This document shows, piece after piece, positions 25,478 through 46,107 of a stretch of 64,000 nt of DNA. Where the stretch lies: the NCBI GenBank assembly GCA_001189075.1, contig LFCN01000006.1, positions 588,866 to 652,865 of the forward strand, written 5' to 3'. Position 1 is the stretch's first letter. Each line of letters opens with the position of its first letter. The DNA is from Parcubacteria bacterium C7867-004. Lineage in GTDB: Bacteria; Patescibacteriota; Minisyncoccia; Phycocordibacterales; Phycocordibacteraceae. A program made the position numbers and the translations under genes. The notes under the pieces are model-generated. The model was given only the letters and a program-made list of their open reading frames with translations. It ran no database searches and was not told where the DNA came from.

Positions 25478-25685
25478 TCGGGGAACGGAAGCAGGATGCA
25501 CGTGTGCGGCCTCTTCCGAAGCCTCGTGTTCCTTCATTTTCGGCCGGGTGTCCCGGGAAGGATGCACGGCATACGGTGAAGACCGTTACAAGCGCGCCTA
25601 ACAGAGACGCAACGGTATGATACAGAAACTGCGAGACTAGCAGCCGGGGCGCTGAAGGTAAAACCTTCAGCGCCCCGGCGCATTT
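25478..25685 (+). ncRNA. candidate structured RNA or interspersed repeat
   Basis: Direct-repeat box and TATCCT upstream; several hairpins; perfect 17-bp inverted repeat at 25643-25679. Confidence 0.35.
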
Positions 25686-25699
25686 CTCAGTATCTATTC

Positions 25700-25780
25700 T
25701 TGACTGCATCCCTGACAGGGGTATACTTTCAGTACAAGTGCCTCCGGGCTCGCCTCCTAATGGGGGAGAAAAAGAAAAAC
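25700..25780 (+). ncRNA. promoter and candidate small RNA convergent on PemK gene 1
   Basis: TTGACT-16-TATACT-ttc-AGTACA, GCC-TCCG-GGC, then a GC hairpin; homologous motif at 45066-45170. Confidence 0.6.
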
Positions 25781-25782
25781 CG

Positions 25783-26169
25783 TCAAAGCAAGTCTTTGGC
25801 GGTTTTTCTAACTCTTATAAAGCATTCTTGGTCCAAGAATCCGATTTTGTTTACGAGCCTTTTAGTATCAATTATTCGAATTTGAGACATAAGCGCCACA
25901 GCCTTCTTGCCCTCAACGTGACCTATCGGCAAACGATACCTATGCCGCTTGATAGACGTGGTTAGCGGTATGACGTAGCAAGTCTCGCGACTAATTCCTT
26001 TCAAAATAAGGACCGGACGCTGTTTTCCCTCACCCGTTCCATCCTGTTCAAAACCTATGTTAGTTCCAAGCGAACACCACCACAGTTCTCGCTCATGATA
26101 GAGCTTATTGCGCTCTTCCGAGTGAATTCTTTCTTTCAGGGAGTACCAGGTGGAAAAATCCTTCTCCAT
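25783..26169 (-). CDS. PemK/MazF-family endoribonuclease toxin with no adjacent antitoxin ORF
   Basis: ERELWWCSLGTNIGFEQDG, RPVLIL, IPLTT, SQIRIIDTKRL. Confidence 0.92.
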   Translation of the reverse strand: MEKDFSTWYSLKERIHSEERNKLYHERELWWCSLGTNIGFEQDGTGEGKQRPVLILKGISRETCYVIPLTTSIKRHRYRLPIGHVEGKKAVALMSQIRIIDTKRLVNKIGFLDQECFIRVRKTAKDLL

Positions 26170-26231
26170 TTGCCGAGGATACGGTCCTGGTCCTCAAGGG
26201 AAGATGAAATTTAGATAATTAAATTCTAAAG

Positions 26232-30482: not shown

Positions 30483-32141
30483 ATGAGTGACACCCAGCTG
30501 TTCGATCGCATCAAGGCGACCGTGAAGGGCGAGGTCGTGAACGATGACGCCTCCCGTAAATTGTTCTCGCGCGACACGAGCGTGTTCTCGCGCACGCCTT
30601 CTATCGTGGTCTATCCGAAAGACGCAGACGACGTTGCTTCATTAGTTCGCACTATGAATGGCGCGCGCAAAGAAGGCATTCCGGGATCCGTAACCGCGCG
30701 CTCGGCGGGAACTGACATGTCCGGCGGTCCGCTCACCGACTCGGTGGTAGCCGTGTTCACGAAATATATGAACACGGTCGAAGAAGTCGGCGACGGATAC
30801 GCGGTAACCGAGCCAGGGGCGTTCTATCGCGACTTCGAGAAAGCAACGCTCGCTCGTGGCCGCCAGCTCATGCCCTCCTACCCCGCGTCCCGCGAAATAG
30901 CCGCGATGGGAGGCATCGTGAATAACGATTCGGGCGGTGAACGCACACTGGAGTACGGCAAAACCCGCGATTATATCGAAGAAATCGATGTCGTGCTTTC
31001 CGATGGGACGAAGACCACATTCAAGGAGCTTTCTCCCGAAGAAGTAGCGCGCAAGACGCAGCTCGAGACGCTCGAAGGACGCATCTATCGTGACATGAAG
31101 AAGCTGCTCGAGGATAACAAGCAGATGATCACAGACGCGAAGCCGAAGGTCTCCAAGAACTCGGCCGGATATGCGCTCTGGGACGTTATAGATGAGAAGA
31201 CCGGGAAGATGAATCTTGCGAAGCTTATCTGCGGCGCGCAGGGCACCCTCGCACTTACGACGAAGTTCAAACTCCGCCTCGTGCGCGAGCAGGGATACCG
31301 CGCGATGCTCATCGTCTTCCTGTCGGATATCAATGTCCTCCCGGAGATCGTACGGAAAGTGCTTCCCTACAACCCCGAGTCATTCGAGTCGTACGACGAC
31401 AACACCTTCAAGCTCGCCATAAAGTTCCTGCCGCAGATGCTTTCCCAGATGGGACTCGCTCGCGCAACCCGCCTCGGCTTCTCGTTCCTTCCGGAACTCG
31501 GGCTTGCTATCCGAGGTGGCGTACCGAAGTTAGTTCTCATGGCGGAGTTCTCCGAGGACACGCATCAGGAGGCGCTCTTCAAGGCGGGACAAGCGAGGGC
31601 AGCGCTCGCGCCTCTGGGGCTCCCGATGCGCATCGCACGAGATGAACGCGCCGCCGAGAAATACTGGATCGTGCGCCGCGAGAGCTTCGCGCTTCTCCGG
31701 AAGAACTCGCATGGCCTCTATGCCGCTCCCTTTATCGACGACTTCGTGGTTCCTACGGATACCTATCCGAAGTTCCTTCCCGAACTGAACGCGCTTCTTG
31801 CCGAGTACAAGCTCCTCTACACCATCGCGGGACATATCGGGAACGGGAATTTCCATATCATCCCGCTCATGGACCTCAACGACCCTAAGGTACGCGGCGT
31901 CATTCTCGAGCTCGCACCGCGTGTATACGACCTCGTCATCAAATATGGTGGCACCACTACCGGCGAGCACAACGACGGCATCATCCGTACGCCGTACCTA
32001 GGCCAGCTCTTCGGGGACAAGATGGTAGCGCTCTTCGCGGAGACCAAGCGCATCTTCGACCCGCTCAATATCTTCAACCCCGGGAAAAAAGTGGGCGGCA
32101 CCTTCGCCGACATTGAGCGCGACATGCTCAAGAGCATCTGA
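30483..32141 (+). CDS. FAD-binding oxidoreductase (GlcD/D-lactate dehydrogenase-like)
   Basis: ARSAGTDMSGG, GHIGNGNFH, TGEHNDG, FDPLNIFNPGK. Confidence 0.93.
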   Translation: MSDTQLFDRIKATVKGEVVNDDASRKLFSRDTSVFSRTPSIVVYPKDADDVASLVRTMNGARKEGIPGSVTARSAGTDMSGGPLTDSVVAVFTKYMNTVEEVGDGYAVTEPGAFYRDFEKATLARGRQLMPSYPASREIAAMGGIVNNDSGGERTLEYGKTRDYIEEIDVVLSDGTKTTFKELSPEEVARKTQLETLEGRIYRDMKKLLEDNKQMITDAKPKVSKNSAGYALWDVIDEKTGKMNLAKLICGAQGTLALTTKFKLRLVREQGYRAMLIVFLSDINVLPEIVRKVLPYNPESFESYDDNTFKLAIKFLPQMLSQMGLARATRLGFSFLPELGLAIRGGVPKLVLMAEFSEDTHQEALFKAGQARAALAPLGLPMRIARDERAAEKYWIVRRESFALLRKNSHGLYAAPFIDDFVVPTDTYPKFLPELNALLAEYKLLYTIAGHIGNGNFHIIPLMDLNDPKVRGVILELAPRVYDLVIKYGGTTTGEHNDGIIRTPYLGQLFGDKMVALFAETKRIFDPLNIFNPGKKVGGTFADIERDMLKSI

Positions 32142-44462: not shown

Positions 44463-45026
44463 CTACGTCGAGTACCTCGTTCGGATGATTCTTCTCGCTT
44501 CCTTATGCTTAGGAACGGTCCGGGCGACCAGGTCCCAGAACCTCGCCGAGTGGTTGTGCTCCTTGGTATGGCAGAGCTCATGCACGATGATGTAGTCGGC
44601 GAGCTCGTGCGGAAGGAATGCGATGCGGTAGTTGAAAGAGAGATTGTTCTCCATGGAGCAGCTTCCCCAACGCGTTTTCTGATTCCGTATTGATATCCGT
44701 CCGTACGAGAATCCGTATGCCGTATTGAAATGCGGGAGCCTCTCCGTCACCAGCACCCTTGCTGCTTCCACCGCATCCTTGTACGCCTTCGATCCCCTTC
44801 TCGGTTTCGGAAGCGGTTCGGGAGCGACGCCCTTGTTCCGCTTCTCGAAATACGCTCTCGCCTTCTCAATCCACTCCGATTTGGTCGCCATCCACCGCTC
44901 GACTTCCCGTAGCGAAACGCGCTTCGGTTTCGTTACCACCACCCGCCCATCTGGTTCTACCGTAAGCCGCAGATTCTTCGCCCGCACTGATTCCCGTATC
45001 TCATATTCGATCCCCGACATTCCCAC
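44463..45026 (-). CDS. YgjP/M48-like metal-dependent hydrolase
   Basis: QKTRWGSCS, YIIVHELCH, NHSARFW. Confidence 0.92.
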   Translation of the reverse strand: MGMSGIEYEIRESVRAKNLRLTVEPDGRVVVTKPKRVSLREVERWMATKSEWIEKARAYFEKRNKGVAPEPLPKPRRGSKAYKDAVEAARVLVTERLPHFNTAYGFSYGRISIRNQKTRWGSCSMENNLSFNYRIAFLPHELADYIIVHELCHTKEHNHSARFWDLVARTVPKHKEARRIIRTRYST

Positions 45027-45065: not shown

Positions 45066-45170
45066 TTGATTTCTTATACTTAGACTTATATACTTTAAGT
45101 ACATTAGGGTGAGAGCTCTAATGACTATGGCTTCGGCCCCGCCCCGCTCGCAAGAGTGGGGCAAACTAGT
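45066..45170 (+). ncRNA. promoter and candidate small RNA convergent on PemK gene 2
   Basis: TTGATT-17-TATACT-tta-AGTACA, inserted hairpin, GGC-TTCG-GCC, GCCCCGCTC-GCAA-GAGTGGGGC. Confidence 0.6.
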
Positions 45171-45563
45171 TTACGCAAATAGAATTTGCTTCAGGCGCTT
45201 ACGTAAGCATTCGAAGGTTTCGATATCAAGAATATCGATTCTTCGTATGAGTCGCTTTGCATCTATTAAACGCACTTGCGATAGGTTTGCACATGCTTCC
45301 CGCTTTCCAACCATTCCGAGTGGTAAATAATATTCCCCTTTCTTCATTTTTCCTGTTAGAGCAACTCCAAAAAAGGTATTCCGATTAAATGCTCGAATCA
45401 CTACAATGGGCCTGTCGAAGTTCTTTCCAGTCCCATCTTGTTCGAATCCTATGTTCACGCCGAGAGCACATGACCATATCTCACGCTCTCGATAATGAGG
45501 ATACGTTCCGCGAACGTTCCTGAATTTCTTGCTCTTATTCCACTCATCGAAGTCCTTTTCCAT
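45171..45563 (-). CDS. PemK/MazF-family endoribonuclease toxin with no adjacent antitoxin ORF
   Basis: EREIWSCALGVNIGFEQDG, RPIVVI, SQVRLIDAKRL; paralog of 25783-26169. Confidence 0.92.
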   Translation of the reverse strand: MEKDFDEWNKSKKFRNVRGTYPHYREREIWSCALGVNIGFEQDGTGKNFDRPIVVIRAFNRNTFFGVALTGKMKKGEYYLPLGMVGKREACANLSQVRLIDAKRLIRRIDILDIETFECLRKRLKQILFA

Positions 45564-45633
45564 CTCACAAGCTTACAAAAAGGCACATAAAATAAACCTG
45601 GAGAAATCAGCACTATTTCCCTATACTTTAGAT

Positions 45634-46107
45634 ATGAAAACGGAGACCCGCTACTGGCTCATGAAATCCGAGCCGGAGAGCTACAGCATCGGGCACCTGA
45701 AGAAGGACAGGAAGACCGCTTGGAATGGCGTGCGCAACTATCAGGCCCGCAACTTCATGCGCGATATGAAGATAGGCGATCAGATCCTCTTCTATCATTC
45801 CAACTGTAAGGTCATGGGCGTATACGGCGTTGCCAAAGTCGCATCAGCCCCCTACCCCGACCCGACCCAGTTCGATCCCAAGAGTCACTATTTCGATACT
45901 AAAGCGACGAAGGCGAAACCCATTTGGGACCTCGTTGATATTGCCTACGTTTCTATGTTCAAAGAGCCGGTCACCCTCATCGACATCCGCGCGACCCCAT
46001 CGCTCAAATCGATGATTATCCTCCAGACAGGCTCCCGCCTTTCCGTCACTCCTGTCGACCCTGCGCATTTCAATACCATCCTCGCCCTCGCCAAAAGATA
46101 CATGTAA
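45634..46107 (+). CDS. EVE domain protein
   Basis: YWLMKSEP, WNGVRNYQARN, FYHS, RLSVTPV. Confidence 0.94.
   Translation: MKTETRYWLMKSEPESYSIGHLKKDRKTAWNGVRNYQARNFMRDMKIGDQILFYHSNCKVMGVYGVAKVASAPYPDPTQFDPKSHYFDTKATKAKPIWDLVDIAYVSMFKEPVTLIDIRATPSLKSMIILQTGSRLSVTPVDPAHFNTILALAKRYM

Follow-up and report, generated by a model that had tools for sequence, protein, structure and literature searches.

There are two PemK/MazF genes of one subfamily in the window (the whole stretch of 64,000 nucleotides that was analysed), which comes from a genome of 779 kb rated as complete. Each gene is followed, on the opposite strand, by a predicted promoter and a short structured RNA (Table 1). Close homologues of the toxin bear Paceibacterota and Campbellbacteria names, which makes a Patescibacteria origin of the genome very likely.

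Behind the stop codon of toxin 1 the sequence reads TATACT, then TTCAGT, then ACAAGT-GCC-TCCG-GGC-TCG-CCTCC-TAAT-GGGGG from position 25734. An earlier note on this DNA had described a convergent promoter followed by two hairpins at this place, and the sequence is as it stated; P1 and P2 stand, and a third hairpin, P3, was overlooked. The predicted RNA 1 is about 75-79 nt long, with fold z-scores of -5.6 (plus strand) and -2.2 (minus strand), and the spacing of its promoter is also found in homologues. There is a perfect 16-bp inverted repeat at 25643-25679, between a sensor-kinase gene and the RNA 1 promoter; it has no clear U run and is probably a terminator that insulates the RNA 1 gene.

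Table 1. Coordinates of the two toxin genes and of the predicted RNA features in the window
Feature	Position	Strand	Remarks
PemK/MazF-fold endoribonuclease toxin 1	25783-26169	-	128 aa; Pfam PF02452, E 1.3e-13
Weak -10-like hexamer TATCCT	26176-26181	-	6 nt before toxin 1 ATG; predicted leaderless start
Predicted strong sigma-70 promoter of RNA 1	25700-25727	+	TTGACT (25700-25705), 16 nt, TATACT (25722-25727)
Predicted single-stranded 5' leader ACAAGU, RNA 1	25734-25739	+	Predicted +1 at 25734
P1 hairpin, RNA 1	25740-25749	+	GCC-UCCG-GGC; UNCG loop
P2 GC-rich hairpin, RNA 1	25753-25766	+	CCTCC-TAAT-GGGGG, after 3-nt linker UCG
P3 hairpin	25773-25809	+	U runs on both strands; toxin 1 stop inside; predicted bidirectional terminator
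PemK/MazF toxin 2	45171-45563	-	130 aa; same subfamily; 44% identical to toxin 1
Predicted promoter of RNA 2	45066-45094	+	TTGATT, 17 nt, TATACT
Predicted RNA 2	45101-45165	+	ACA, extra 5' hairpin, ACUAU, P1, P2; no P3; z -4.1
Extra 5' hairpin of RNA 2	45102-45123	+	Between ACA and P1
P1 of RNA 2	45129-45138	+	GGC-UUCG-GCC
P2 of RNA 2	45141-45162	+	GCAA loop

A leaderless mRNA for toxin 1, as the earlier note had it, is a plausible prediction from the sequence. There is a -10-like hexamer 5-9 nt before the start in 50 of 120 homologues, with a peak at the 6 nt seen for toxin 1 (27/120), and an SD-like word precedes the start in 2 of 120. The description does not extend to the Campylobacter jejuni homologue, the mRNA of which has a leader of 26 nt (PMC3656092).

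The same arrangement had been claimed at toxin 2 on the strength of a shared 15-mer. In the window this 15-mer has two occurrences, at 25722 and at 45089 (chance mean 0.05), and a scan of the genome allowing 2 mismatches found one more site, on contig C2. However, 12 of the 15 bases are -10 box and discriminator, so the 15-mer was rejected as a functional RNA element, and at toxin 2 an extra hairpin separates ACA from P1. Toxin 2 is flanked by a divergent gene (45529-46107), the motifs of which resemble those of an EVE-domain protein, and by another gene (44463-45026) with motifs like those of an M48/SprT-type metalloprotease.

The toxin subfamily and the linkage of the RNA motif to it

The AlphaFold model of toxin 1 (pLDDT 94.9) has the MazF fold. 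The best structural match is MazF-mt1 (Z 14.7, rmsd 1.4 over 101 residues), ahead of CptN (Z 10.5, rmsd 2.4 over 103) and ToxN (Z 7.0, rmsd 3.4 over 101), and Foldseek agrees with this comparison. Pfam names PemK and no ToxN family on toxin 1, NCBIfam gives a weak MazF match only, and PADLOC gives none. Residues 5-17 of toxin 1 form an N-terminal helix that lies outside the MazF alignments, the first aligned residues of which are 19-27. The subfamily toxins have about 22 additional N-terminal residues in comparison with MazEF/PemIK toxins, and the helix is missing both from the aligned MazF structures and from the control PemK genes that have a protein antitoxin. Nine residues are invariant in 85 aligned homologues (W8, K12, G35, N37, G39, E41, R51, Q96 and R104), and W8 and K12 belong to the subfamily-specific helix. 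T70 is invariant in 12 close sequences and falls below 90% among the 85; we assume that R51 and T70 correspond to the MazF catalytic Arg and Thr.

The subfamily is present in 94 of 301 genomes of the order, with up to nine copies per genome, and in 54 of 401 genomes of the phylum. It is also found on Nitratiruptor, Helicobacter and Campylobacter plasmids and in Campylobacter prophages (Campylobacterota). The subfamily profile collects 555 clusters (50% identity) at E <= 1e-30 and 2118 at E <= 1e-10; a contig search of genomes with a single protein as query returned 1 locus.

A fixed detector, consisting of a promoter, an AU-rich leader and two hairpins on the opposite strand behind the toxin stop, was positive behind 126 of 162 subfamily toxins (98 of 120 distinct full-length toxins and 28 of 42 more distant ones), the loci scored being the best-scoring matches and then successive lower-scoring ones, a part of all matches. 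The motif can be seen by eye at 19 of the 22 loci missed among the 120; one has no downstream DNA and two (L066 and L131) have no clear motif. The 14 misses among the 42 comprise 10 that are positive by eye, three that are doubtful (L170, L173 and L183) and one without data. Applied to long ORFs of the window's genome, the same detector was positive at 2 of 614. The observation of the earlier note stands and extends far beyond the window.

Behind canonical short PemK/MazF genes of the phylum the detector was positive at 0 of 23, and 20 of these 23 have an overlapping upstream ORF; many of the upstream ORFs are MazE-like. Beside these 23, the set contained six subfamily genes. None of them has an overlapping upstream ORF, and the RNA was detected at five. 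Closed upstream ORFs of 40-130 aa are present at six of the 120 subfamily loci and are unrelated to one another, and a search of the genome for PF04014 (MazE family) gave nothing over the cut-off, in agreement with the earlier statement that there is no antitoxin ORF. In the sample examined, the helix and the RNA on the one hand and a protein antitoxin on the other are mutually exclusive. At L017, L018, L034, L159 and L184 two toxin-RNA modules are adjacent, each with its own promoter, marking insertion hot spots.

The consensus of the motif is TTGAC-16/17-TANNNT-6 nt, a +1 at A(C/U)AA(A/G)U, P1 of 3-4 bp (sometimes longer), a linker of 1-6 nt and a GC-rich P2, followed by an A-rich spacer and P3 or by a U run. 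The predicted RNA starts with A(C/U)A in 88 of 98 loci and with ACAA in 64 of 98, in comparison with 3 of 39 and 0 of 39 for other promoter-like sites of the genome; a mere initiation preference for ACA was rejected on this comparison. The earlier note had suggested that a 5' UACA could be a decoy or processing site. The decoy idea is weak: the U falls at the predicted position -1, where 52% of 68 seeds have a T, so the conserved unit is not UACA. What is conserved is A(C/U)A at +1.

Covariation was scored on 75 distinct model-aligned RNAs, in an alignment that is fitted to the structure and in which kin RNAs are not independent: 99.8% of 508 cells pair, there are 64 double changes, and the score is 0.284 in comparison with at most 0.085 for slid partners. 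The middle pair of P1 is G-C in 53 RNAs, C-G in 20 and unpaired in one. On a quick toxin tree, in which 12 of 93 inner branches are well supported, the C-G form takes 6 changes. Strong branches force at least three of these, so the swap has recurred, and the covariation of the small stem that had been proposed from the two loci of the window holds in the family. The sequence is kept in the single-stranded parts (leader and junction) while the stem pairs swap.

There is a UNCG loop in P1 on the convergent strand in 72 of 98 loci and on the mRNA strand in none; for a GNRA loop in P2 the counts are 48 and 3. The tetraloops mark the convergent strand as the RNA strand. The folds computed were of the nested kind, and given the stability of the tetraloops a pseudoknot is unlikely. 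A peptide read from an AUG, GUG or UUG in the leader was rejected by eye, there being ACG variants and length changes that shift the frame. Rfam gave 0 matches in the window at gathering scores, and in E-value mode sub-threshold noise only.

Of the 98 loci, 67 have P3 (60 by a stricter count) and 31 lack it. The toxin stop lies inside it in 62, and it is U-rich on both strands in 56. G-U pairing in P3 is biased towards the RNA strand (73 against 29), so it is uncertain that the mRNA terminates there. The leader-P1-P2 core ends before the toxin stop codon in 92 of 98 loci, and in 56 of the 67 loci with P3 the core is beyond the predicted bidirectional terminator, where the predicted overlap between RNA and mRNA is P3 only. 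The toxin ORF overlaps P2 in 6 of 98 loci; at L063, L083, L088, L123, L128 and L130 the toxin frame continues through the reverse complement of P2 into a C-terminal tail.

Decayed loci, additional units and relatives in Campylobacterota

Among the 301 genomes, an 18-nt pattern taken from toxin-linked RNAs matches 77 times in 55 genomes, against a single match of the reversed pattern. Of the 77, 57 adjoin a listed toxin, three are extra units at known loci and 17 are orphan. Thirteen orphan sites have a C-terminal remnant of the toxin, two are at contig ends, and two are chance matches without a promoter. At the 13 sites the promoter and hairpins are kept beside a decayed toxin, which has internal deletions, often with the N-terminal KDF fused to the last helix, or is reduced to its last 10-14 codons; the remnant scores reach or exceed the 99.9th percentile of a genomic null. 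The toxin is lost first and the RNA is kept, the order to be expected of an addiction module. A covariance model of the RNA, R2, which is narrow and with which 82 candidates per genome were scored, has no match in 80 toxin-negative genomes and has matches in 20 of 44 toxin-positive ones. Outside the 80 stand four toxin-negative genomes, G100 (deliberately), G112, G134 and G140, in which an RNA with a remnant was already known.

There are toxin mini-ORFs at L097, L100, L102 and L104 in which the N-terminal (K)DF is joined to the C-terminal helix, which suggests recurrent deletion via a short internal repeat. At L099 the last ten codons of the toxin form the end of an unrelated ORF of 141 aa, which uses P3, and the RNA gene is intact.

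Tandem units under one promoter, two to about five in number, were seen at L020, L119 and L146 only. At L020:1278-1500 (+) about five partly degenerate leader-P1-P2 units follow one promoter, with P3 over the toxin stop, much as in an antitoxin array. Additional RNA units are found at L119:1413-1500 (+), L146, L056:1015-1054 (-) and L120:1243-1283 (+). Some of them have the junction type of another toxin clade, and the one at L119 has no matching toxin type among the four toxins of that genome. These units are possibly for cross-protection or leftovers of module replacement.

The gene at 30634-31038 of plasmid pVir in C. jejuni 81-176 is a homologue (hhalign 99.6%, E 7.6e-24; subfamily profile E 3e-32), and it has the N-terminal FDEW..KK helix too. 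In a published transcriptome study, an sRNA named CJpv3 was detected by Northern blot beside pVir0047, on the minus strand at 31119-31043 (77 nt; Dugar 2013, PMC3656092). The same source gives a start step height of 16164 for CJpv3 and of 28 for the toxin mRNA (PMC3656092). The start of CJpv3 as given there is 6 nt after TATAAT, which is the predicted start position. CJpv3 folds into an extra 5' hairpin, AAUU, a P1 opening with GGC, one linker base and a P2 opening with CCCC. It ends 2 nt past P2, short of the toxin stop codon, and this layout is that of RNA 2 in the window.

The PemK homologue is the sole annotated toxin-antitoxin toxin among 48 features of pVir. The study by Shen in 2016 reportedly gave its toxin the name cjpT, and is said to contain a curing result. 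According to two secondary sources, Shen 2016 reported that cjrA, encoded on pVir of 81-176, is an antisense antitoxin of type I (PMC7826846, PMC10470494). Because pVir0047 is the only annotated toxin of this kind on the plasmid, cjpT is probably pVir0047 and cjrA is probably CJpv3. The earlier note had spoken of an undescribed type of toxin-antitoxin system. This stands for the family, the structure of the RNA and the mechanism, but such a pair was, to judge from the secondary sources, probably published in 2016 as cjrA/cjpT. The accessible main text of T1TAdb (PMC8594479) does not contain 'Cjp', 'Cjr', 'PemK' or 'MazF', and the literature searched, mostly papers outside subscription, holds no description of the RNA family, its structure, CJpv3, the cjpT protein or the link to Patescibacteria.

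The Nitratiruptor locus reads TATAAT-6-ATAAAT-P1-P2, as in Patescibacteria, and the Helicobacter and CJIE4 loci are similar by eye. Model R2, which was built on the Patescibacteria (CPR), has no match at five Campylobacterota loci, and the likeness rests on position and folding. Two relatives on C. coli megaplasmids, short or split genes, have no RNA within 130 nt downstream; they align from residue 32 only and have an HTH gene downstream. In strain RM1221 a convergent RNA, CJnc90 (96 nt, detected by Northern blot), lies behind CJE1154, according to Table S11 of PMC3656092.

How the RNA may act on the toxin

Taken together, the data make it very probable that the RNA is the antitoxin, as the earlier note had proposed, because the RNA is linked to the toxin throughout the family, covaries, excludes protein antitoxins, outlasts the toxin when a locus decays and has a homologue that is expressed in C. 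jejuni according to the transcriptome study.

On the present sequences it seems somewhat probable that the predicted RNA blocks the toxin by binding the protein. The strong promoter would provide a large excess of an RNA of 45-95 nt, which would sit in the RNA-binding groove of the toxin through its single-stranded 5' A(C/U)AA(A/G)U and its P1-linker-P2 junction, aided by the extra helix. MazF cuts before ACA, and an RNA with ACA as its first bases would look like an uncleavable 3' product of the reaction. If transcription stopped, through loss of the element, phage take-over or dormancy, the RNA would decay and the nuclease would be freed.

Several findings favour binding. A cis-antisense RNA could pair without any conservation of its sequence, but the leader and junction, both unpaired, are conserved and the stems swap. 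The core mostly ends ahead of the stop codon (92 of 98 loci) and, where P3 would terminate both transcripts, nothing in the mRNA is complementary to it. Two to about five units share one promoter in L119, L146 and L020, although these may be leftovers of recombination. The added invariant helix is found exactly where the RNA is present. Additionally, ToxN proteins, which have the MazF fold, are known to bind RNA antitoxins. Against binding, the toxin mRNA may extend over the whole RNA wherever P3 is missing (31 of 98 loci).

These last loci lead to type I antisense control, which we consider possible but rather doubtful. Here the convergent RNA would pair with the 3' end of the toxin mRNA and cause cutting by RNase III or a block of translation, the role of P1 and P2 would lie in stability and kissing, and ACA would reflect initiation. 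The layout is indeed convergent, RNase III is encoded in the window's genome, P3 or the whole RNA can overlap the toxin mRNA, and in 6 of 98 loci the ORF itself runs through P2. In C. jejuni the homologous RNA is in large excess, and the secondary sources call cjrA an antisense type I antitoxin (PMC7826846, PMC10470494). However, any cis-antisense RNA is complementary to its target, and the conservation of +1 to +6 and of the junction, far above that of other promoters, goes beyond this. The core is outside the predicted mRNA in 56 of the 67 loci with P3, a 3-bp stem with a UUCG loop would be a poor kissing loop, and antisense control does not account for the added invariant helix of the toxin.

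The RNA could also do both, pairing over P3 and the stop codon to tune the toxin mRNA while its 5' core binds the protein, and two layers of this kind would reconcile the published class with the conservation. The stop is spanned by P3 in 62 of the 67 loci, even though coding changes have to be matched in its non-coding arm. A shared terminator, however, accounts for P3 without pairing, and 31 of 98 loci have no P3; we regard this combination as unlikely. It is very unlikely that the RNA is not an antitoxin at all, with a protein that is self-inhibited by its N-terminal helix (which could mimic the tail of MazE) or is for RNA processing, and a motif that is a travelling promoter, terminator or scar, since at 13 of 17 orphan sites the toxin is deleted and the promoter and RNA are intact, as an addiction module predicts, P1 is too weak as a terminator, and the homologous C. 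jejuni RNA is abundant in the published data.

With binding of the protein as the preferred reading, the wider picture would be of a large class of protein-binding RNA antitoxins that has so far gone unnoticed, in which a MazF lineage has lost MazE, has gained an N-terminal helix and is held in check by a convergent, repeat-free RNA of 45 nt, the ACA of which mimics the cleavage product. This would be a type III-like origin independent of ToxIN, common in Patescibacteria, and cjrA/cjpT would have been misfiled as antisense; as a whole, the picture may hold or fail about equally. An RNA family that is absent from Rfam 15 is now defined, and the missing antitoxin would be named for hundreds to thousands of partnerless 'type II PemK/MazF' genes. 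In streamlined Patescibacteria an RNA-controlled nuclease would be present in as many as nine copies. Should the RNA bind the protein, the evolution of types II and III is linked within one fold, and to our knowledge no smaller or simpler antitoxin of this sort has been found. The presence of a relative in a culturable species with mapped transcripts makes these ideas directly testable.

Comparison with known systems

The type III systems ToxIN, CptIN and TenpIN (and AbiQ) have a MazF/Kid-like fold in common with the window toxin, and inhibition of the protein by RNA is likewise predicted for the window family. A type III antitoxin is a tandem array upstream of the toxin in its operon, which the toxin cuts into pseudoknots. 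In the window family, by contrast, the RNA is downstream and convergent, is mostly a single unit and has two plain hairpins, and the toxin is structurally closer to MazF than to CptN or ToxN (Z 14.7 in comparison with 10.5 and 7.0). The fold and active-site motifs are shared with type II MazEF and PemIK; these have an upstream antitoxin ORF, whereas the window family has none and carries the N-terminal extension. The module has neither the layout of ToxIN nor the partner of a type II system.

Like type I systems, the window family has a cis-encoded RNA on the opposite strand, which is predicted from promoter and strand polarity and was measured for the C. jejuni homologue only. Type I pairs usually overlap at their 3' ends in convergent orientation. 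In Bacillus, txpA/RatA and bsrG/SR4 have convergent type I RNAs at the 3' end of the toxin gene with a shared terminator region; in these systems the overlap is long, and small membrane peptides serve as toxins. The window family differs in having a nuclease toxin and a conserved core that is mostly outside the ORF. The Rfam pemK motif (RF02913) is an RNA motif named for PemK genes; it has no match at either site, and its best match in the genome is elsewhere, at 17 bits (cut-off 34.8).

Finally, cjrA/cjpT, if it is the pair of CJpv3 and pVir0047, differs from the window family in being plasmid-borne, in its longer P1 without a UUCG loop, in the lack of P3 and in the 26-nt leader of its mRNA. 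Like the window family, it combines a homologous toxin that has the helix with a convergent RNA in which an AU leader, P1, a short linker and P2 are placed beside the toxin stop.
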